The notes under the pieces: model-generated | Told to the model about the DNA's origin: nothing | Seen by the model: only the letters and a program-made list of their open reading frames with translations | The model's database searches: none | Part shown: one piece after another, positions 16,869 to 42,742 of the stretch | How the letters are laid out: each line of letters starts with the position of its first letter | How positions within the stretch are numbered: the first letter of the stretch is position 1 | Made by a program: the position numbers and the translations under genes | From: a virus | Virus record (IMG/VR): IMGVR_UViG_3300030380_006483 | DNA length: 64,000 bases | Strand: one strand, 5' to 3'

Positions 16869-18616
16869 ACCCAGAAAAAGTAGGTAAACAAATAGCTAAA
16901 AGAATCCTAATGGAAGAAGAAATGACTAAAGTTTCTATCTATCCAGGTGCTTTTAAACCACCACATAAAGGACATGTTGAAACAGCTTTAAGATCTATGG
17001 ATGATAAAACTAATAAGGTAATTATTTTTATGTCTACTAAGGAAAGAGAAAATATAGATGTAGAGGAAGCAAAACAAGTATGGGATTTATATAAAGCTAA
17101 TATACCTGAATTAGAAAAAGTTGAAATACAATTAACACCCACCCCAGTAAAATCTGTTTATGATTATGCTAAAGATAATCCTACACATGATATAAGAGCT
17201 GTATTTGGTAAAGGTGAAGAAGAAAGATTTAAATCATTATTAGATAAGGAAAAATATCCCCACGTAGAAGTATTTGATGCCGGTACTGTAGGTGATTTTT
17301 CAGCTACAACTTTAAGACAAGCTATTAGAGATAAAGATTTAGAAACAATCAGGGACTATATTCCATATTTAATTAATGTAGATGATTTTTTAAATATATT
17401 TCAATTAAATGAAGCTATTGTAGGTGATAAAATCGTATGTGATAATTGTGGGTGGGAATGGAAAATAAAAGATGGAGGAGATGATTTATTTATATGCCAT
17501 AAATGTGGGTATGATAATAACCCTTTAGATGAAGGTTTATACCCTAGATATGATTATAGAAAAGTTAAACAAGTAAGATACAAAGCATCAGATGTTAGAA
17601 CTAATGATCCGGATGCATTAGAGGAAGATCCTAAAAAAGGTACAGGTAAAAAACCTAAGGGGTCTGGTAGAAGATTATATACTGATGAAGATCCAAGCGA
17701 TACAGTAAAAGTTAAATTTAGTACTAGACAGGATATAGTAGATACTTTAGGTAAAACCTCATTTAAAAATAAATCTCATGCTAGGCAATCCCAAGTAATA
17801 AATTTAATACATCAAAGAGTAAGAGCGGCTTTAGGTAGAACTAAAGATCCACTAAAAAAAGCTAAATTAAAATCTGCTTTTGAATATATTAAAAAACGAA
17901 AGGAAGCATCTAAGAAAAAAACACAAAGATTGAAAAAACAAAAAACAAATGAAGGGGTTTTATCTCAAACTAGTCTTGTATTACCAAGAGGTAAGAAAAT
18001 AGTATTACAAGCTGAAGAACAAGACTATGATAGAGGACTAATAGTAGAACTTACCGAAGAAGGAGGATATAAAATATACTATTGGTATGGTGATGATATA
18101 AAAATATATCCTGCTGAAGTTTTAGTAGACGGAGAATCAATAAAACCAGATGCAAGAGAAGTTTATATTAAATTCCATCCAGAATTGGAAAAAGAAAATA
18201 TAGAAGAAGGAGATAAATATTTACAAGAAGCTAGATATAAAAAATTTTTAAATGAAGCTTGGGATGATTCTAAAGCTAAAATTATAAATAGATTTATGGA
18301 TTTTGCTACAGATTATTTATCTATAGATAGACCTAAAATTAAACTTATTAACCAAGAAGGATATACCCAAGAATATAAAAGTTTTGGTGGTTATTTACCT
18401 TCTGAAGAAAAAATATTTGTTGTAGTTAGAAATCGTAATATGGCAGACATTTTACGTACATTAGCACATGAAATGGTCCATCATATGCAAAACCTTGATG
18501 GTAGATTAACACCAACCTCGGGTGAAGATGGATCCCCTGATGAAAATGAAGCAAATTCATTAGCAGCAGTTTTAATGAGAAAATTTGGAAGAGAAAACCC
18601 AGACATTTATGAATAA
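16865..18616 (+). CDS. Multidomain protein: HIGH nucleotidyltransferase, Zn ribbon, basic module, HExxH metallopeptidase
   Basis: YPGAFKPPHKGH and SATTLR motifs; CDNC...CHKC; HEMVH...ENEAN. Modules are separated by LNE/LDE/LEE/TNE/LQE linkers. Confidence 0.75.
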   Translation: MNPEKVGKQIAKRILMEEEMTKVSIYPGAFKPPHKGHVETALRSMDDKTNKVIIFMSTKERENIDVEEAKQVWDLYKANIPELEKVEIQLTPTPVKSVYDYAKDNPTHDIRAVFGKGEEERFKSLLDKEKYPHVEVFDAGTVGDFSATTLRQAIRDKDLETIRDYIPYLINVDDFLNIFQLNEAIVGDKIVCDNCGWEWKIKDGGDDLFICHKCGYDNNPLDEGLYPRYDYRKVKQVRYKASDVRTNDPDALEEDPKKGTGKKPKGSGRRLYTDEDPSDTVKVKFSTRQDIVDTLGKTSFKNKSHARQSQVINLIHQRVRAALGRTKDPLKKAKLKSAFEYIKKRKEASKKKTQRLKKQKTNEGVLSQTSLVLPRGKKIVLQAEEQDYDRGLIVELTEEGGYKIYYWYGDDIKIYPAEVLVDGESIKPDAREVYIKFHPELEKENIEEGDKYLQEARYKKFLNEAWDDSKAKIINRFMDFATDYLSIDRPKIKLINQEGYTQEYKSFGGYLPSEEKIFVVVRNRNMADILRTLAHEMVHHMQNLDGRLTPTSGEDGSPDENEANSLAAVLMRKFGRENPDIYE

Positions 18617-32772: not shown

Positions 32773-34698
32773 ATGGCAGACACTTCATTATTTGGTAGAC
32801 TAAGAAGATTATTTTCTACAGATGTAGTAATAAGAAACGTTGGGGGGAATCAACTTAAAGTAATAGATTCTAACCAAATACAATCCTTAGGTCAACTACA
32901 AACAAACTCACTATACGATAGATTTAATAAGTTGTATAGCACTACAGGGGGGCTGAATTATAATACAATGCAGCAAACTAATTTCCCTTCTACTAGAATT
33001 CAATTATACACAGACTATGAATCAATGGATACTGATTCTATTGTTGCTTCTGCATTAGATATAGTATCTGATGAATCTTGTTTAAGAAATGATATGGGCG
33101 AAGTACTACAAATTCGTTCAGCTGATGAAACAATACAAAAAATATTATATAATTTATTTTATGATGTACTGAATATAGAATTTAATCTATGGTCTTGGAC
33201 ACGTAATATGTTAAAATATGGAGACTTTTATCTAAAATTAGAAATATCAGAAAAATTTGGTGTATTTAATGTAATTCCATTTTCTTCTTATACTATTATG
33301 AGAATGGAGGGTGCAGATCCAGCTAATCCGGCTGACGTAAAATTTAAATATGATCCTAGTTATTCAGTATCTGAAAGTCCATTAGGATTTCAACAAATAT
33401 CACCCGGAGTAGGTGTTAATACTGGTGAGGAAGTAGTGTTTGATAATTATGAAATGGCCCATTTTAGACTATTATCTGATTTTAATTACTTACCTTATGG
33501 TAGATCATATCTTGAACCAGGAAGAAAAATTTGGAAACAAATGACATTGATGGAAGACGCAATGTTAATCCATAGAATAGTTAGAGCACCAGAAAAAAGA
33601 ACTTTCTTTGTAAATGTTGGAAATATACCACCTAATGAAGTAGAAACTTATATGCAAAGAATGATCAATAAAATGAAAAAAACACCTTATGTTGATCCAA
33701 ATACAGGTGATTATAATTTAAAATTCAACATGCAAAACATATTGGAAGATTTTTATATTCCTGTAAGAGGTGGAGATGCAACAACTAGAATTGAAACAAC
33801 AAAAGGTTTAGATTATGCTGCTATTGAAGATGTAACTTATTTAAGAGATAAATTATTCTCTGCACTTAAAGTTCCAAAAGCTTATTTAGGGTATGAAGCT
33901 GATTTAGAGGGTAAAGCAACACTAGCTGCTGAAGATATTAGATTTGCTAGAACAGTTGAAAGAATTCAAAAAATATTAATATCTGAATTAACTAAAATTG
34001 CATTAGTACATTTATATGCACAAGGATATGATGATTCTGCATTAACTAATTTTGAATTATCATTAACTACACCTTCTATTATATATGACCAGGAAAGAAC
34101 GGCATTGTTAAAAGAAAAAGTTGACTTAGCTCAACAAATGATGGATACTAAGTTAATGCCTACAGATTGGATATATGATAATATCTTCCATTTTAGTGAA
34201 GATCAATATCAAGAATATAGAGATCTAATTATTGAAGATCAAAAACGTAAATTTAGAGAGGCACAAATTGAAACAGAAGGAAACGACCCTGCTGAATCAG
34301 GTGAAGCATATGGTACACCTCATTCATTAGCTTCATTATATGGTGCTGGAAGATATCCGGGAAGCAAAGGAGTTCCTACAGGGTATAGTATTAATGACCC
34401 AGAATACCCAGAACAAGCATTAGATCAGGGAAGACCGGCGGATTCTGTATCTGATTATGGTACACAAGATAGTAATTTAGGTAAAGATCCTCTTGGTTCT
34501 AATAGAATGACAGCAAAATCAGGAGAAGAAGAAAGACCAGGATTATCTAACGCAGGAATGGCTTTAGAAAATTTAAATACTAAATCAATATTTGCTCAAA
34601 ATGAAAAAATGTTGAAAGGTATGTTTAAACAAAAAGTTAATTTGTTTGAAGGAGAAAACCTCTTGGATGAAGATAATATTCGTGAGGAAGTTGAATAA
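32773..34698 (+). CDS. gp20: Portal protein
   Basis: MEDAMLIHRIVRAPEKRTF...NVGN...EDFYIPVRG...IE...ALKVPK, typical of T4-like portals. Confidence 0.95.
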   Translation: MADTSLFGRLRRLFSTDVVIRNVGGNQLKVIDSNQIQSLGQLQTNSLYDRFNKLYSTTGGLNYNTMQQTNFPSTRIQLYTDYESMDTDSIVASALDIVSDESCLRNDMGEVLQIRSADETIQKILYNLFYDVLNIEFNLWSWTRNMLKYGDFYLKLEISEKFGVFNVIPFSSYTIMRMEGADPANPADVKFKYDPSYSVSESPLGFQQISPGVGVNTGEEVVFDNYEMAHFRLLSDFNYLPYGRSYLEPGRKIWKQMTLMEDAMLIHRIVRAPEKRTFFVNVGNIPPNEVETYMQRMINKMKKTPYVDPNTGDYNLKFNMQNILEDFYIPVRGGDATTRIETTKGLDYAAIEDVTYLRDKLFSALKVPKAYLGYEADLEGKATLAAEDIRFARTVERIQKILISELTKIALVHLYAQGYDDSALTNFELSLTTPSIIYDQERTALLKEKVDLAQQMMDTKLMPTDWIYDNIFHFSEDQYQEYRDLIIEDQKRKFREAQIETEGNDPAESGEAYGTPHSLASLYGAGRYPGSKGVPTGYSINDPEYPEQALDQGRPADSVSDYGTQDSNLGKDPLGSNRMTAKSGEEERPGLSNAGMALENLNTKSIFAQNEKMLKGMFKQKVNLFEGENLLDEDNIREEVE

Positions 34699-34730: not shown

Positions 34731-35579
34731 ATGAAAGTAAAACACAACAAGTACAAGAATACTGGTATTCTGTTTGAACTTCTAGTAAGGAAGATTACTT
34801 CCGATGCTATGAATAACAGCAACTCTAAGGCAGCATCTTTAGTAAAAAAATATTTTACTAAAAGTGAACTAGCCAATGAAAATAAACTATACCAGACAAT
34901 AAACAATTCAATATCATTATCAGAAGGTAAAGCTGAATCAGTATTATCTACAATACTTGATTTATCTAGAAAATTAGATAAGGATAAATTATCAAAAGAG
35001 AAATATAACCTTATTAAAGAAATAAAAGAAAACTTTGATATGGTTGATTTTTTCCAAGCTAAAATTAAAAGTTATAAACTTTTAGCATCAACATATATTC
35101 TTTTAGAATCACATAATAATAGAAAATTTGCAAATCCCGAATCTATTATTACATCAAAAATTACTATTTTAGAGCATATTACTTCAAATCCTGATACTAA
35201 AATATCTTTAACACCTTTAGTTGAAGATTTAATGAAATTAGATAAAGGAACACGTGCGCTTACTTATAAATTAATGCTTGAAAAATATAATACTAAATTT
35301 GATGATTTAACTACTGATCAAAAAGAAGTATTAAAAGAATACATAAATAGTGCTGCAGATGCCCCAAAACTTAAAGAATTTTTAAATTCTAAATTTGAAG
35401 CAATATCTACTATATTAAGAGAAAATATAGATAAAATAACTGAACCTGCACTTAAAATTAAAATCCAAGAAGTTATAAACCTTATTGAACCTATTTTAGA
35501 ATCTAGAAAGATAAAAGATGATCACCTTGTAGCGCTACTACAATATCTTGAACTTTCTAAGGAAATAAAGGCAGTATGA
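34731..35579 (+). CDS. Putative prohead core protein
   Basis: 282 aa helical protein between portal and protease, the position of T4 genes 67/68. Confidence 0.5.
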   Translation: MKVKHNKYKNTGILFELLVRKITSDAMNNSNSKAASLVKKYFTKSELANENKLYQTINNSISLSEGKAESVLSTILDLSRKLDKDKLSKEKYNLIKEIKENFDMVDFFQAKIKSYKLLASTYILLESHNNRKFANPESIITSKITILEHITSNPDTKISLTPLVEDLMKLDKGTRALTYKLMLEKYNTKFDDLTTDQKEVLKEYINSAADAPKLKEFLNSKFEAISTILRENIDKITEPALKIKIQEVINLIEPILESRKIKDDHLVALLQYLELSKEIKAV

Positions 35580-36655
35580 CAAAAATTAGGATAAAAGGAT
35601 TAAATAAAGAAATGAGCACCACAGGAACTGGTGCTTCCTTTGCACCTGGTACGGGTGCGCAATATGCTTCACCTAAATCATTCAAAAAAAAAGATGAAAT
35701 AGGAGAACCATTCACTAAACCTAATTCTTCTGTTCCTAATAGAAAATCTAAATTTATAGATTACAAGCAATTATTTGAAAAAGCTAAAAAAGCAATAAAA
35801 TTTAACCCTATTGATGATTTTACAGATTCACAAGCATGGGCTGGTGATAACACTGGGTATGATATGGACACTCAGGATGCTGCTTCAGTATTAGAATTAG
35901 CTAAAACATCTAAGGACGGTGAATTTAAAGTAGGTGATGTTCAAATTGAAAAGGGAACTAGATATGTTGTAACAGATGTAGACCCAGTTACAGGTGGAAT
36001 TTCTTGGGATGTAGAAAATGTACCCGCTTTTGATTCAGTATATAAAGAATTTGATGAATTAAGAAAGGCAATAGCAACTTTAGATAGAAAAACTGATGAT
36101 ACCGTTGTAGATGATATAGCTACTAAAATTAAAGCTGAGTTTAATAGATATAGAACTCATATTAGAAAAAATTATCCTGATGAATACAAAAGATTCCAGA
36201 CCAATGAAAATATAAATGAAGCAAGTGGAGGACCATCAAGAAGTATTCTTATAAAATTAATTCATGATATAGGAGCACAAAGATTTGCTGATATTATTGC
36301 TGATTTAAGAGATGAAAATTTACAGGATCAAATAGTAGCAGCATTTGGTCTATATAAAGATGAAGAAGGATCAGAATTTATGAAACCTGATATATTAAGG
36401 GAAGCAAGATATTCACAATTTAAAAAAGAATCACAATTCCGTACACCAACCCAACAATTACATATAGCTGTGCGTGAAATTAGACGTAAAATAGATGAAA
36501 TGTCTAAAGTAGTATCATTTACAGAGAGAATGAGAACTGAATTAAAATCAAGTAATGAAGGTATGACTTATTTAAATCGTACACGTAATGCTATATCAAA
36601 AATTAATGAAAAATTACAAGATTTAAATAACAGAATTAAAGGATTAACCGAGTAG
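35576..36655 (+). CDS. Putative prohead core/internal protein with a major-capsid-like N-terminal segment
   Basis: NKE-MSTTGTGASFAPGTGAQYA; further linkers LFE, LE, INE, LRE. Confidence 0.6.
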   Translation: MTKIRIKGLNKEMSTTGTGASFAPGTGAQYASPKSFKKKDEIGEPFTKPNSSVPNRKSKFIDYKQLFEKAKKAIKFNPIDDFTDSQAWAGDNTGYDMDTQDAASVLELAKTSKDGEFKVGDVQIEKGTRYVVTDVDPVTGGISWDVENVPAFDSVYKEFDELRKAIATLDRKTDDTVVDDIATKIKAEFNRYRTHIRKNYPDEYKRFQTNENINEASGGPSRSILIKLIHDIGAQRFADIIADLRDENLQDQIVAAFGLYKDEEGSEFMKPDILREARYSQFKKESQFRTPTQQLHIAVREIRRKIDEMSKVVSFTERMRTELKSSNEGMTYLNRTRNAISKINEKLQDLNNRIKGLTE

Positions 36656-36688
36656 TACAGAGGACAAAGACGATAAATATTTATATAC

Positions 36689-37855
36689 ATGACAACACAA
36701 GAACTATATAACAAGGTATTAGCTGAGGAGGTAACACAGCAAAAATTCTTATACGAAGTTCGTAGAGATATAAATTTACCTTTCATAACTTCAAGCAATA
36801 ATTTCAAAGATACTGTACAGATCTTAAAGAATAAAGGCATAATATCTGAAAAAAAATTATCAACTGGTAAACAAGATGTTGAAATTTACGCTAAAACTAT
36901 TGATATGGTTAATCCATATGAGTATAGTAGGGGTATGAATTTTGAATTAGGTGTTGTTATGGACGCAATAGGAAATAGAATTTCTGATAATGCCGGTGAT
37001 AGTATGCACATTGAAGATCTTACTAAAGATGACGTATTAAAGGCACAGAAAAAAGTATTAAAAAATCTTACTAAAAACCCTCAATACTATCAACAAAAGT
37101 TAATCCCACAAATGGAAGGTGAAACTGAACACCCAGTTGAAGTAAATGCTAAATCAATAGAGGCCTTAAAAAAAAAAGCAGGGAAAGTAATTCGTGAACA
37201 TGGTGAAGATTATGAGAAAGTATCCAAAGTTATGGGTAGTATTTCTCCCTTAGAAGAGGATAGCTATACTCTTACTGGTAAAGAATCAGAAACTTTTAAA
37301 GAAAAAGTAAAAAAATTTACAAGAGCTAAAAGTTATGCAGAAGAACTTGTAGCTTTAAAGGAATTAGATAAGTTATATGCTCAGTTAGATTTAAAAAAGA
37401 TGGATGTAAATGACTATGAAGAAATAGTAACTGATCCTCAATTAAAACTTGATTTAGACGAATTTAAAACTTCGGAAACAAATACTGATTACATATTGGC
37501 TTTACAGGCTTGGAAACAAACCGGAAGTGATATAGCTTATAGAAACTTAGTAAAAGCTTCTAAAGCTAATAATATGCCATTACCCCCACCAAAAAGTGAA
37601 ATGAATCCATTAAGAGAATATGGAACTGGAATTGGTAAAGAAGAGCAAATTGCAGCTAAAGAAATAGCAGCTAAACGTGAACAGATTTATAAAAAATATG
37701 CCGAAGAATATAATGTGGATGTTAATGAAATTAAAGATAGATTAGAAGCATATAAAATATCCCAAGAAGAAGCTATTGAGGTTGAAGATGAAGATACAGC
37801 AATATCAGTACAAAAAAAATCACCTAACGCTGACGTAAGAATAATCGGAAAATAA
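36689..37855 (+). CDS. Putative prohead core/internal protein
   Basis: 388 aa, charged; linkers ISE, IRE, LEE, LRE; late motif upstream. Confidence 0.5.
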   Translation: MTTQELYNKVLAEEVTQQKFLYEVRRDINLPFITSSNNFKDTVQILKNKGIISEKKLSTGKQDVEIYAKTIDMVNPYEYSRGMNFELGVVMDAIGNRISDNAGDSMHIEDLTKDDVLKAQKKVLKNLTKNPQYYQQKLIPQMEGETEHPVEVNAKSIEALKKKAGKVIREHGEDYEKVSKVMGSISPLEEDSYTLTGKESETFKEKVKKFTRAKSYAEELVALKELDKLYAQLDLKKMDVNDYEEIVTDPQLKLDLDEFKTSETNTDYILALQAWKQTGSDIAYRNLVKASKANNMPLPPPKSEMNPLREYGTGIGKEEQIAAKEIAAKREQIYKKYAEEYNVDVNEIKDRLEAYKISQEEAIEVEDEDTAISVQKKSPNADVRIIGK

Positions 37856-38472
37856 TGGCTCAAACACTATTAATAGAGTATTCGGTATTTACTCCAAAGA
37901 ATACCCAAATTACTGAAGGTATTTCGGGTAATAAAAATATGATTGTTAACGGTGTCGTTCAACGTGCCGAAGAATTCAATCACAATGGTAGAAGATATCC
38001 ATTTGAAATTTTAAAAAGAGAAGTAGATAAATATATTGAAGGCCCTATTAGAGAAAATAGAGCTTTAGGTGAATTAGACCATCCAGAATCATCTGTAATT
38101 AATTTAAAAAATGCTTCTCATAATATAAAAGAATTATATTTTGAAGGAAATGATTTAATGGGTAGTATAGAAATTTTACCTACTCCTTCAGGTAATATCT
38201 TAAAAGAATTATTTAAAAATAATATTACGGTTGGAATTTCTTCTAGAGGTATGGGTTCTGTAAAACCTTTAGGTGAAGGTAAGGTAGAAGTAGAAGATGA
38301 TTTTGAATTATTATGTTGGGATTTTGTATCAACACCATCTACACATGGGGCTTTTGTAAAACCCGTAGGGTTAAACGAAGGACGAAATCATAATTCTAAT
38401 CCATATATTAAATTAAACAAAATTATATCTGATATTATTTGTACTCAATCAGGTATTTGTTGTTTAAAATAA
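37855..38472 (+). CDS. gp21: Prohead core protease
   Basis: NHNGRRY, ALGELDHP, NASH, VGISSRGMGS, WDFVSTPSTHGA motifs of the T4 gp21 (U9) family. Confidence 0.95.
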   Translation: MAQTLLIEYSVFTPKNTQITEGISGNKNMIVNGVVQRAEEFNHNGRRYPFEILKREVDKYIEGPIRENRALGELDHPESSVINLKNASHNIKELYFEGNDLMGSIEILPTPSGNILKELFKNNITVGISSRGMGSVKPLGEGKVEVEDDFELLCWDFVSTPSTHGAFVKPVGLNEGRNHNSNPYIKLNKIISDIICTQSGICCLK

Positions 38473-38521
38473 AAACCCATTTTTGTTTTTATCCTCCTTA
38501 TATATTTATCTATGATAAGAT

Positions 38522-38583
38522 AGATATTCCCAATAATATCTCACTCTAATAAAACACACTTATATTACTTCCTAATAAGTAAT
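38522..38583 (+). promoter_or_regulatory. Tandem hairpins in the 5' leader of the scaffold/capsid transcript
   Basis: AGATATT-CCCAAT-AATATCT (38522-41) and ATTACTT-CCTAAT-AAGTAAT (38564-83): two perfect 7-bp stems of different sequence with near-identical loops. Confidence 0.6.
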
Positions 38584-38599
38584 CCCAAAAATTTTTATA

Positions 38600-39835
38600 A
38601 TGTCAAATACAAAGTTTTTCAACGATGCTATCGCTGAAGCTAAGGCTATTAGAGAAACTGCTCTAGCCAATGCTAAACTTGCATTAGAAGAAGCTTTTAC
38701 TCCACAGATTCAATCTATGTTAGAGAAAAAGCTATCAGAAGAAGCTGATGATATGGATGAAGCTAAAGACATGGACGAGGCGAAAGCTAAGGATATGGAT
38801 GAAGCTAAAGACATGGACGAAGCTAAAAAAGATGTAGATGAAGCAAAAAAGGACATGGACGAAGCAAAATCCAAAGATATGGATGAAGCTAAGGATATGG
38901 ACGAAGCAAAGAAAGACGTTGACGAAGCCAAAAAAGACATGGATGAAGCTAAAAAAGACATGGACGAGAAAAAGGACATGGATGAAGCAAAATCTGATGT
39001 TGATGAGGCTAAGAAAGACGTAGACGAAGCAAAAGTTGACGAGAAAAAGGACATGGAAGAAACCGTAGAAGTATCTGAAGAAGTATCTGAAGAGAAAGAT
39101 ATGGATGAAGACATGTACGAAGAAGGTCAAATCGAAGAAATCGATCTTGACGAATTGCTAGCGGAATTAGAAGCAGCTGAAGAAGGCTATTCTAACGAAG
39201 GTGAAGCAAAAGAAGAAATCGCTGTTGAGGCGCCTGTATCAGAAGAAGAAGTAGCTGAAGAAGCTGCTGCTGATGATGAAGTAGGTGAAATCTCAGTAGA
39301 AGATCTTAAAGACATCATCAAAGACGTAATGGCAGATGTGCTAGGCGGTGGCGGTGGTGAAGACATGGAAGTTGACGTTGATGGAGATGGTGACATAGAT
39401 GTTGCTATTGACGGAGATGACGACGGAGATGTTGAAGTAGAGGATGACATGGCGGAAGCTAAGAAAGATGATAAAATGGATGAAACAAAAGCTGAGTTAA
39501 ATGAAGCTATTAAAGTAATCGAAACTTTAAAATCTGAACTTAACGAAGTTAACTTACTTAACGCTAAACTTCTTTACGTAAATAAATTATTTAGAACAAA
39601 GAACCTTACTGAAACTCAGAAAGTAAAAGTGATTAATTCATTTGATAAAGCTGAATCAGTTAAAGAGGTTAAAAACTTATTTGAAACAATTAAGGATGCA
39701 GTTACTACAACTAAAAAGCCAGTGAACGAATCTAAAGGATTTGCTTCTAAAGCAGCAGGTGTAGCACCAAAAGCCCCAATTGTAGAAAGTGATAACTTTG
39801 TAGCTAGAATGCAAAAGCTAGCAGGAATTATTTAA
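38600..39835 (+). CDS. gp22: Prohead scaffold protein
   Basis: Acidic coiled-coil protein between protease and major capsid protein; assignment is largely positional. Confidence 0.8.
   Translation: MSNTKFFNDAIAEAKAIRETALANAKLALEEAFTPQIQSMLEKKLSEEADDMDEAKDMDEAKAKDMDEAKDMDEAKKDVDEAKKDMDEAKSKDMDEAKDMDEAKKDVDEAKKDMDEAKKDMDEKKDMDEAKSDVDEAKKDVDEAKVDEKKDMEETVEVSEEVSEEKDMDEDMYEEGQIEEIDLDELLAELEAAEEGYSNEGEAKEEIAVEAPVSEEEVAEEAAADDEVGEISVEDLKDIIKDVMADVLGGGGGEDMEVDVDGDGDIDVAIDGDDDGDVEVEDDMAEAKKDDKMDETKAELNEAIKVIETLKSELNEVNLLNAKLLYVNKLFRTKNLTETQKVKVINSFDKAESVKEVKNLFETIKDAVTTTKKPVNESKGFASKAAGVAPKAPIVESDNFVARMQKLAGII
38747..39061 (+). repeat. Tandem (K)D(M/V)DEAK repeat, about 15 units, in the scaffold
   Basis: Direct translation; 18-24 nt units with synonymous variation and one higher-order 4-unit duplication. 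Confidence 0.9.
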
Positions 39836-39862
39836 TAACCCTAATTTTAAAATAAAATTAAA

Positions 39863-41515
39863 ATGTCAAACGTAGTAAATCAACTATTAGAAACTGCAAA
39901 CCCGTACAAATCAGTACAAAAAGATGCTGCTAAATTAGCGGGTAAGTGGGAAAAATCAGGTTTATTAGAAGGTATTTCTAATGAAACTGATAAGTCTAAC
40001 ATGTCGATCATGTTAGAAAACCAAGCTAAACAACTTGTTGTTGAAGCTAACACTACTGGGACAGGTGCAACATTTACTCCAGGTACAGGTGAACAATACG
40101 CTGCTGTAGCGTTACCACTTGTAAGAAAGGTATTTGGACAAATCGCTGCTAAAGAATTCGTTTCTGTACAGCCAATGTCTTTACCTGCTGGTTTAGTATT
40201 TTACCTAGACTTCCAGTACGGAAATTCAAAAACTCCATTCACTGATGGGGATTCAACGTATGGTGATAGCTATGCGGATGGTCACTTTGGTAATACAAAC
40301 GAAGGTGGTCTTTACGGTGCTGGTAAATTCGGATATTCAATTAACCTATTTTCAGCTTCTGTTGCTGACGCTAACCACACTATATCTTCAGCTTCTTATG
40401 CTGATGTAAACTTTGATGCTGATTTATCAGCTTCAGTAGCTGCCGCTCCAGGTAGAATTACTAAAATTTCTGTTAAAACAGGATCTTTATCAGGTGCTGA
40501 TGTAGACGGAGTAAGAGGATGGAGAGTAACTGGTGCTAACGGAGCACTAGCTGCGATCACAGAGGCTTTAAACTTCCCAGCATTAACTAAGATAAACGGA
40601 GATAGTGTTGAATTCTTTGTAACATCATCAGGTGTTGAAAGTGATGAAGACATTACTGTTTTCTATAACAAGCAAACTGCAGATAACGCAAGAGGTGACT
40701 TCGAAGATGGTGCTGATTACTCTTCTCAGACTGGTACTGGTAGAGCAATTAACATCCCAGAAATTGATGTTCAATTAAGAAGTGAAACTATTGCTGCTAA
40801 AACAAGAAAGTTAAAAGCACAATGGACACCAGAATTCTCTCAGGACTTGAATGCATTCCATTCATTAGATGCTGAAGCAGAATTAACTAACATTTTAAGT
40901 GAGTACATTTCATTAGAAATCGATCTTGAAATTTTAGATATGTTAATTGAAAACGTACCTTCAACTCAGGTGGCTAACTGGTCAGCTAAAGTAGGTAATG
41001 AAATTAACGCAGGTGCCACAGCTTTCACATCTAACACAGATGGTGTATACTATACACAAATGAGCTGGTTCCAAACTCTTGGAATTAAATTACAGAAAAT
41101 CTCTAACTTAATCCACCAGAAAACTTTAAGAGGTGGTGCTAACTTTATGGTTGTTTCTCCAACAGTAGCTACAATATTAGAATCTATTCCAGGATTCGCT
41201 GCTGATACTGACGGGGATGCTGCTAAAATGCAATATGCATTTGGTGTACAGAAAATTGGTGCATTAAACAGCAGATATAAAGTTTACAAGAACCCATACA
41301 TGAAAGAAAACACGATCTTGATGGGATTCAGAGGTAATCAATTCCTAGAAAGTGGTGCTGTATATGCTCCATATATTCCATTAATCATGACACCATTAGT
41401 GTATGATCCTAATACTTTCACTCCAAGAAAAGGTATTATGACTAGATACGCTAAGAAAATGGTAAGACCTGAATTCTATGGAAAAGTACATGTTGCAGAC
41501 TTAAACATAATTTAA
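39863..41515 (+). CDS. gp23: Major capsid protein
   Basis: VQPMSLPAGLVFYLDF, KTRKLKAQWTPEFSQDL, YAPYIPL, PRKGIMTRY; probable maturation site LVVE61-A62. Confidence 0.95.
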   Translation: MSNVVNQLLETANPYKSVQKDAAKLAGKWEKSGLLEGISNETDKSNMSIMLENQAKQLVVEANTTGTGATFTPGTGEQYAAVALPLVRKVFGQIAAKEFVSVQPMSLPAGLVFYLDFQYGNSKTPFTDGDSTYGDSYADGHFGNTNEGGLYGAGKFGYSINLFSASVADANHTISSASYADVNFDADLSASVAAAPGRITKISVKTGSLSGADVDGVRGWRVTGANGALAAITEALNFPALTKINGDSVEFFVTSSGVESDEDITVFYNKQTADNARGDFEDGADYSSQTGTGRAINIPEIDVQLRSETIAAKTRKLKAQWTPEFSQDLNAFHSLDAEAELTNILSEYISLEIDLEILDMLIENVPSTQVANWSAKVGNEINAGATAFTSNTDGVYYTQMSWFQTLGIKLQKISNLIHQKTLRGGANFMVVSPTVATILESIPGFAADTDGDAAKMQYAFGVQKIGALNSRYKVYKNPYMKENTILMGFRGNQFLESGAVYAPYIPLIMTPLVYDPNTFTPRKGIMTRYAKKMVRPEFYGKVHVADLNII

Positions 41516-41590: not shown

Positions 41591-42742
41591 ATGTCTCAAG
41601 TACCTATAATTTGGCCTGGAACTTCAACATTCTCTCAGAGCCAAACACCTTTTGGTTTTTATGATACAGATACTGATTTTTCAACAGATGCTGATAAAGT
41701 AGCAAGCTTTTGTGCATCTCGTTTAGGATACCCTACAGTAGATGTTGAATTAGGTAGTGGTTCATTCTATGCTTGTTTTGAAGAAGCAGTTACTACATAT
41801 GGTAATGAACTTTACTTATATCAAATAAGGAATAATTTTATAAATTTAGAAGCATCTAGTACGGGATCTTCTCATAATCAAGATGTAATTAATCCTAATC
41901 TAGGAAATGTTATTAGATTAGCAGAAAATTACGGATCTGAAGCGGGATCAGGAGGTACAGTAACTTGGTATTCAGGATCGATTCCACTTACGGCATCTAT
42001 ACAAGAATATGATTTAAATGATTGGAAACAAACACAAGGCATTACAGGTTCAATTGAAATAAAACAGGTATTTTTCCAAAACACCCCAGCAATTGTAAGA
42101 TATTTTGATCCATATGCTGGTACGGGATATGGTTCTCAACAATTATTAGATGTATTTGGATTTGGAAATTATTCTCCTGCAATTAATTTTTTATTAATGC
42201 CTATTTACTATGATGTTTCTGTAATTCAAGCAATTGAATTAAATGATCAAATTAGAAAATCCGCATTTACATTTGAACTTGTAAATAATAATTTAAGAGT
42301 ATTTCCTATACCAAATGCTGAAGGACAATTATTTATTCAATACATTAAAGTAGATGAAAGAAATGCACCTACTACTGCTGCATATTCGGGAAGTAATTTA
42401 GTAACAGATATATCAAATGTCCCATATGAAAATCCTACTTATGCTTATGTTAATGCACCTGGTAGATATTGGATTTTTGAATATACATTAGCTTTAGCTA
42501 AAGAATTACTAGGATATGTAAGAGGAAAATATCAACAGGTACCTATACCTGGTGCTGAAGTTTCATTAAATCAAGCAGATTTAATATCAGCTGCTAGTGC
42601 TGAAAAAGCTGCTTTAATTGAAAAATTAAGAACGGACCTAGATGAAAACTCTAGAAAAATGCAACTACAAAGAAAAGCGGAAGAAGCCGAAGCAATGAAA
42701 GGTACATTGGATCAAGTACCATTACCTATTTACATAGCATAA
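41591..42742 (+). CDS. gp13: Neck protein (gp13-like)
   Basis: LGYPTVDVEL N-terminal motif; LGYVRGKY...IPGAEVSLN...PLPIYIA C-terminus; position after the MCP. Confidence 0.75.
   Translation: MSQVPIIWPGTSTFSQSQTPFGFYDTDTDFSTDADKVASFCASRLGYPTVDVELGSGSFYACFEEAVTTYGNELYLYQIRNNFINLEASSTGSSHNQDVINPNLGNVIRLAENYGSEAGSGGTVTWYSGSIPLTASIQEYDLNDWKQTQGITGSIEIKQVFFQNTPAIVRYFDPYAGTGYGSQQLLDVFGFGNYSPAINFLLMPIYYDVSVIQAIELNDQIRKSAFTFELVNNNLRVFPIPNAEGQLFIQYIKVDERNAPTTAAYSGSNLVTDISNVPYENPTYAYVNAPGRYWIFEYTLALAKELLGYVRGKYQQVPIPGAEVSLNQADLISAASAEKAALIEKLRTDLDENSRKMQLQRKAEEAEAMKGTLDQVPLPIYIA

Follow-up and report, generated by a model that had tools for sequence, protein, structure and literature searches.

The head-gene block of a virus known from the IMG/VR record IMGVR_UViG_3300030380_006483 raises the question of why a candidate core protein of the prohead should carry a copy of the peptide that begins the mature capsid protein. 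The window, which is the whole stretch of 64,000 nucleotides analysed (G+C content 31%), contains a head block of T4 type on the + strand. Within it, an open reading frame (ORF) at 35576-36655, encoding 359 amino acids (aa) and here named ORF359, lies upstream of the gene for the major capsid protein (MCP; 39863-41515). The copy in ORF359 is conserved and selected, and within a module of a prohead-core protein it stands behind a Glu like that of a protease cut site. Both copies probably need to suit one and the same partner as the head is assembled. The parts of the two proteins that bear on this are listed below.

35576-36655, + strand: ORF359, prohead-core candidate between portal and protease
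35576-35611, + strand: leader of ORF359 (M1-E12) with a putative cut-site Glu at its end, conserved in clade homologues (alignment A2)
35612-35668, + strand: MCP-like peptide M13-A31, which encloses 35618-35668, is nearly invariant within the clade and co-varies with the cognate MCP
35663-35683, + strand: hallmark Y-x-[ST]-P-x-[AS]-F, immediately behind the copy (alignment A3)
35684-35785, + strand: basic tail and conserved module end (alignments A2 and A3)
35786-36655, + strand: remainder of ORF359, a small beta unit and long helices in the AlphaFold2 (AF2) model
39863-40045, + strand: propeptide of the MCP (M1-E61), in which a helix at residues 41-60 ends at the putative cut site L-V-V-E
40046-40105, + strand: mature N-terminal segment of the MCP (A62-A81), equivalent of the T4 N-fist and template of the copy, aligned to T4 gp23* positions 10-26
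40106-41515, + strand: N-arm helix and HK97-type body of the MCP with a T4-type insertion (Pfam PF07068, 1e-75)

The first-pass annotation of this DNA had reported a near-copy of the mature N-terminal peptide of the MCP in ORF359, and was right about it in position and in every residue. Residues 15-31 of ORF359 (35618-35668) and residues 64-80 of the MCP (40052-40102) are identical at 14 of 17 positions, with 37 of the 51 nucleotides shared. The 17-mer begins three residues past a Glu in ORF359 and MCP alike, following E12 and M-S in the former and E61 and A-N in the latter. Local alignment of ORF359 residues 1-45 with MCP residues 1-120 gives a score of 87, compared to 23.9 +/- 4.5 (maximum 52) for 2000 composition-preserving shuffles. 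When the MCP was compared with the window by tblastn, the ORF359 site was the sole secondary match below E = 0.1 (E = 3e-5), and a six-frame motif scan of the window found no other full-motif copy. The likeness between the two proteins is far beyond chance. A lesser resemblance is found in the gene that follows the MCP (41591-42742, with a weak match to the head-tail adaptor family phrog_211), where L-E at residue 84 precedes A-S-S-T-G-S-S with a score at background. Relatives of this protein keep a similar L-E-G-S-S-T-G-G, and the site may be due to chance or may be a third cut site of the same style.

The same annotation held that the likeness is maintained at the protein level and is not the product of a recent DNA duplication, a view borne out by codon usage. 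Codons differ at 8 of the 14 identical residues of the 17-mer pair, and across 42 unique pairs of MCP and core protein the codon is shared at 204 of 418 identical residues, where 191.8 would be expected from local codon usage. The best single locus shares 9 of 12 codons, which is non-significant after 42 tests. Since codon sharing lies close to expectation and no locus stands out after correction, recent gene conversion was rejected as a general cause.

Co-variation of the two segments across relatives had been set beforehand as the check on the claim, and it was found. To find the core peptide, its own hallmark was used, independently of any likeness to the MCP. Among the 42 unique pairs, the mean score is 56.6 for cognate and 40.3 for non-cognate combinations. 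Reducing the set to one pair from each of 15 clades, defined by an identity of the MCP body below 65%, leaves the difference in place (57.0 vs 39.1). In a joint alignment, shared derived positions, at which both members of a pair have the same residue and differ from both family consensuses, number 1.93 per cognate pair and 0.48 per non-cognate pair. None of 20,000 permutations reached the cognate value in any of these tests. As independent divergence of linked genes would not favour likeness between cognates, the core peptide and the MCP peptide evolve in concert.

Single lineages illustrate this. TTGTGA occurs in both proteins of the window's clade and TNSGGA in both proteins of loci L045, L049 and L050. 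In L079 an identical 17-mer is found in the two proteins, including a G-V-S-N insertion, while L107 has a lineage-specific NSSF.SGTEGEN in both. An N-V insertion is common to the two proteins of L136, as is a G-A-G insertion to those of L075, L083, L099 and L110. On a tree of the MCP body, the segment is short in both proteins of the basal lineages, and the element F-T-x-G-x-G-x-Q appears in both proteins of derived lineages.

The peptide follows a Glu in all 42 unique core sequences, in agreement with the placement first proposed. Past the Glu, the consensus x-S-x-T-G-x-G-A is common to both families, and F-T-x-G-x-G-x-Q precedes a closing aromatic residue in each. This aromatic is mostly Trp in the MCPs (33 of 39) and Tyr in the core peptides (38 of 42). 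By analogy with E65 of T4 gp23, the MCP would be cleaved after E61, and we infer that ORF359 is cut after E12 by a protease of gp21 type. The prohead protease encoded at 37855-38472 is the presumed enzyme for both putative cuts. At P3, 18 of the 42 core sequences have Leu or Val, and L, I, V or M is found in many other lineages. Targeting leaders of T4 internal proteins run to 10-19 residues with [LI]-x-E at the end. The ORF359 leader consists of 12 residues and ends in L-N-K-E; the MCP site, L-V-V-E, likewise has Leu at P4.

On the side before the cut, the two proteins differ. The MCP is almost invariant there (among 52 MCPs, E52, Q54, A55 and E61 of the propeptide are invariant and N53, K56 and Q57 nearly so), whereas the core protein is variable. 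Since the copy is limited to the residues past the cut, the comparison points to a role for the mature N-terminus. The leader of ORF359 instead resembles the Glu-ending leaders, 10-12 residues long, of about nine other ORFs in the window. These leader-bearing ORFs, including ORF359, start at 18609, 19761, 20382, 21434, 23141, ~25600, 25858, 26175, 29690 and 35576; their leaders are of the type M-x-K-x-x-L-K-x-[YL]-[IL]-x-E, and past the Glu they are unrelated to each other. The leaders resemble the capsid-targeting sequences of T4 (PMC3012670), and to judge from sequence the ORFs look like a family of capsid-targeted cargo, comparable to the T4 internal proteins. Because the ORF359 leader resembles those of other presumed cargo, targeting to the core needs no copy of the MCP. 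The MCP-like motif is absent past the Glu of the other leader-bearing ORFs and past all [LI]-x-E sites of the scaffold.

The nature of the copied segment can be approached through T4. The MCP matches PF07068 (1e-75) and phrog_138 (1.6e-70), and T4 gp23 provides its only matches in the PDB. In the AF2 monomer model a helix at residues 41-60 ends at E61, the confidence measure pLDDT is below 50 over residues 57-112, and the N-arm helix is drawn at 79-97. The first-pass annotation had called the copied segment the mature N-terminal arm. The mature N-terminus stands, but HMMER places the MCP segment at gp23* positions 10-26, which belong to the N-fist rather than the N-arm. In T4 the N-fist comprises gp23 residues 66-91, the first ~25 residues of the mature protein, and precedes the N-arm (PMC7136217; PMC9958956). 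It docks on four subunits and is unbound where a neighbouring capsomer is absent (PMC9958956; PMC7136217). It is disordered inside the unexpanded head, whereas in the expanded head it is found at the outside of the shell (PMC9546572; PMC9958956); the assembled, expanded lattice is the only state in which it takes on order (PMC9546572). Like the window segment with which it aligns, the gp23* N-fist is rich in Gly, Thr and Ala, and it starts at the protease cut, as the window segment is predicted to do. In contrast, the window segment is ~9 residues shorter, and T4 has no second protein with a copy.

The copy in ORF359 belongs to a larger unit. Within ORF359 the peptide is among the parts most conserved in its clade (alignment A2), and a module of ~70 residues can be recognized across homologues. 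It opens with a short leader or helix ending in Glu, continues with the MCP-like peptide, the hallmark Y-x-[ST]-P-x-[AS]-F and a basic stretch, and closes with a few conserved residues. In the module alignment (A3), E12 and F36 are invariant and Y30, T32 and A35 nearly invariant. ORF359 has all of the defining parts (the Glu, an x-S-T-T-G-like start, the hallmark and the basic tail) and scores 61.0 (E = 8e-18) with a hidden Markov model (HMM) of the module. The AF2 model of ORF359 (mean pLDDT 48.5) shows residues 1-109 as disordered, strands at 122-148 and helices to the C-terminus; it was too poor for a fold search.

A protein search with ORF359 returned 481 homologues, and scans of viral contigs with ORF359 and the MCP alignment yielded 138 related loci. 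In 74 of these, with at least 4.8 kb upstream of the MCP, the portal-to-protease interval was searched with the module HMM; the module was present in 68, each time within that interval. A profile search of 1.84 billion representatives found 768 clusters with the module at E <= 1e-3, N-terminal or internal in cluster representatives of 59-693 aa. In the related loci the module-bearing protein ranges from 73 to over 500 aa. In some phages the module makes up the entire protein (73-84 aa); in the window's clade it forms the start of a longer protein, and elsewhere it follows a domain that ORF359 has at residues ~113-215. Among cultured phages, the module was seen only in the Flavobacterium immuto phages, in its short form (a 74-aa protein in vB_FspM_immuto), apart from a weak match in Microcystis phage Mel-JY01 (E = 0.056). 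A search of the ESM Atlas gave viral clusters only, without names. By these searches the module is widespread and abundant in marine T4-like phages, and was previously unannotated.

Some homologues hold traces of rearrangement. The C-terminus of ORF359 (R-I-K-G-L-T-E, 36632-36652) echoes its leader (I-R-I-K-G-L-N-K-E, 35588-35611). This echo, together with the relatives that have the module behind the central domain, suggests that the window's clade may have arisen through relocation of the module, which would have passed from the C-terminal side to the N-terminal one, as in a circular permutation. In some close homologues the central domain is followed by an insert of 22 residues that ends in G-S-A-Y-E-P-V-[RK]-E (alignment A2, past residue ~212), and protein P0128 contains a second short copy of the peptide, G-A-S-A-Y-E-A-P-Y-A-F. 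Both may be degenerate extra copies of the module hallmark.

What the matching peptides do is a separate question. The favoured reading, held tentatively and at rather less than even confidence, is that ORF359 is an internal protein of the prohead core whose copy is cut free and engages the partner of the MCP N-terminal peptide. The gp21-type protease would cut ORF359 and the MCP after Glu and expose the same new N-terminal peptide on each inside the prohead; if both are so processed, we infer that both peptides must fit one partner. That partner would most probably be the docking surface formed by neighbouring MCP subunits. The core fragment would then be tethered to the shell and, through its basic tail, perhaps also to DNA, or it might occupy or compete for N-fist sites during maturation. 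A more specific form, in which the core protein supplies an N-fist in trans, docking or threading at lattice sites left unfilled by MCP N-termini (for example near the portal or the vertices), appears unlikely. If it were true, an internal protein with a DNA-binding basic tail would be coupled to the shell, or expansion would be timed, and the co-variation among lineages would amount to a natural map of the specificity of a capsid docking interaction.

Several observations weigh against the tentative reading of a core peptide that engages the partner of the MCP N-terminus. Since the T4 N-fist ends on the outer surface (PMC9546572), an internal protein would, by analogy, need to thread through the shell or to act before expansion. 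For the same reason the docking in a groove of the inner capsid surface that was originally envisaged is doubtful. The AF2 models are of low confidence in the peptide regions of both ORF359 and the MCP. At P3 the window's clade has Asn or Lys, with Leu at P4, where the T4 rule calls for a hydrophobic residue at P3. Common to all lineages are only the first ~8 residues past the Glu and the closing aromatic, and in one crown subclade the core peptide is reduced to ~10 residues (like MSTSGGAGAY) while the MCP segment has 20-26, so a full match is not obligatory.

The shared partner might instead lie in the scaffolding core, with the contact made before cleavage and setting stoichiometry or curvature, and hence head size. 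Taken as a complete account this is possible, if somewhat doubtful. In T4 the N-terminal region of gp23 lies inside the unexpanded head, and the head-length mutations A66D, A94V and G97S in this region have been read as affecting core contacts (PMC9546572). Mutants of genes 67 and 68 are altered in head shape and length (PMC2984593). T4 also offers a precedent for likeness between a core protein and the capsid protein, as residues 1-48 of gp67 are similar to residues 19-67 of gp23, the part of the propeptide that ends at the cut site. Against a core partner, the propeptide side, which no other part of the MCP N-terminus exceeds in conservation, is not copied in this clade, and the ORF359 leader already looks like a targeting signal. 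Nor was a scaffold site that co-varies with the peptide found, although none was sought. On balance the shell, with the surface on which the N-fist docks, has a slight edge as the partner, because the copy is confined to the side of the cut that is retained and the leader is enough to explain targeting. A contact with the scaffolding core before cleavage has almost the same likelihood.

Two further explanations do without a common partner. The peptide could be an extended P'-side recognition element of the prohead protease that ensures the same processing with the same timing. The ~8 residues past the Glu that all lineages have in common would fit this, as would the Leu at P4 of both proteins in the window's clade. 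The co-variation, however, extends 10-20 residues past the scissile bond, beyond the expected reach of protease subsites. T4 gp21 sites share only [LI]-x-E (PMC9026906), and other presumed substrates, both the leader-bearing ORFs and the scaffold, are without the motif, which leaves this explanation highly improbable. The other supposes concerted evolution without a matching function, whereby segments of ~60 nucleotides are occasionally homogenised by gene conversion and then maintained by separate purifying selection. The identical insertions of L079, L136 and the G-A-G group are most easily made by DNA copying, and the F-T-x-G-x-G element occurs in both genes of derived lineages; the short-form subclade demonstrates that the full match can be lost. 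Such insertions are easiest explained by rare DNA copying followed by synonymous drift under strong purifying selection on both genes, and old conversion events likely seeded them. Still, the codon counts reveal no locus with recent conversion. Moreover, the segment pairs share only about 70-80% of their bases, which is judged a poor substrate for homologous exchange, yet matches have been fixed in many separate lineages. This repeated fixation suggests that matching of the two peptides is favoured. As the peptide is also among the best conserved parts of ORF359 within its clade, a concert devoid of function is improbable.

The contact between core and shell in T4-type heads and the effect of minor core proteins on head shape are old and poorly resolved questions. 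A core copy of the mature N-terminus of the shell protein, changing jointly with it in dozens of lineages, offers a concrete, testable contact, and the matched and mismatched peptide variants that occur in nature could be used for specificity tests. No description of such a copy was found in the literature searched, nor were proteomic data for this clade.

The genes around ORF359 are as follows.

32773-34698, + strand: portal protein of gp20 type (Pfam PF07230, 7e-68; phrog_213), which opens the conserved head block
34731-35579, + strand: conserved head-block protein of 282 aa, role unassigned, with homologues in the same place in 16 related loci examined
36689-37855, + strand: conserved head-block protein of 388 aa, role unassigned, with homologues in the related loci examined
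37855-38472, + strand: prohead protease of T4 gp21 type, S77 (Pfam PF03420, 5.6e-29; phrog_207, 3.6e-50)
38600-39835, + strand: scaffolding protein, acidic and repeat-rich, in the gp22 position, assigned from its place, its composition and the conservation of both termini in relatives

The order of the block is thus portal, 282-aa ORF, ORF359, 388-aa ORF, protease, scaffold and MCP, and the stop codon of the 282-aa ORF overlaps the start of ORF359 (ATGA). Apart from small extra ORFs, this order is kept in the loci examined that have enough upstream DNA. A gene of the 388-aa type is nearly always the next after the module protein, with a small ORF between them in a few loci. Searches of Pfam and PHROG returned no family match for ORF359, the 282-aa and 388-aa ORFs or the scaffold. 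The scaffold consists mostly of acidic repeats of the K-D-M-D-E-A-K type and has a C-terminal motif D-N-F-x-A-R-M, where relatives keep N-D-A-F-x-R-M-R-E-L.

By MCP, the closest cultured relatives are the Flavobacterium phages vB_FspM_immuto (57.6%), Microcystis phage Mel-JY01 and Rhodothermus phage RM378. In Mel-JY01 a gene for ribosomal protein bS21 is annotated between protease and scaffold, inside the head block (L002:6188-6415). A second MCP-like gene of gp24 type was sought in the window by tblastn of the MCP, and none was found. One related contig, L114, has two tandem full-length MCP genes (L114:2600-4207 and L114:4225-5515) with ~80-85% base identity, both with the propeptide and the N-fist segment. 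This pair may represent a recent split into major and vertex proteins like that of gp23 and gp24.

Among known systems, T4 itself provides the nearest comparisons. An apparent resemblance of the ORF359 N-terminus to that of gp24 (leader, Glu, S-T-T-T) was not significant, with a score of 25 that 132 of 2000 shuffles attained. The gp23 N-fist has no match in T4 gp67, gp68 or gp22, and searches of T4, of Pelagibacter phage HTVC008M and of Synechococcus phage S-RSM4 for an N-fist copy found none. The genes for gp67 and gp68 lie between portal and protease, the position held by ORF359. Neither ORF359 nor seven of its homologues match the profiles of gp67 (phrog_1064) or gp68 (phrog_1049), so an assignment to either family was rejected; these eight proteins had no match in PHROG or Pfam, while T4 gp67 itself matches phrog_1064 at 1.7e-30. 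The alignment of gp67 residues 1-48 with gp23 residues 19-67 has a score of 47, which is reached by 3 of 2000 shuffles, and this likeness was reportedly noted in older literature. ORF359 copies the retained mature N-terminus and has a basic tail; in gp67 the likeness is to the propeptide, which is removed, and the tail is acidic. Both gp67 and gp68 are small core components processed by gp21, and their mutants alter head shape and length (PMC9958956; PMC2984593).

The T4 internal proteins IPI-III and Alt also have a short N-terminal leader that ends in Glu and is cut by gp21, with unrelated cargo behind it (PMC3012670; PMC9026906). What they share is the removed leader, whereas the co-evolving element of ORF359 lies past the cut and copies the MCP rather than other cargo. 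The clearest known case of assembly proteins that share a capsid-binding peptide is that of CpmB from SaPI1 and the scaffold of phage 80alpha, in which homologous short peptides compete for one binding site on the capsid protein and thereby determine capsid size (PMC5644958). For a common binding site of this kind in the present system, the co-variation would be indirect support. Unlike the present system, where a capsid N-terminus is copied within one phage, the two proteins there belong to a parasite and to its helper phage, and the copied element is the C-terminal helix and hook of the scaffold. Judged against these systems, the ORF359 module would appear to be a variant of a T4-type prohead core protein that is new in copying the mature N-terminus of the MCP.

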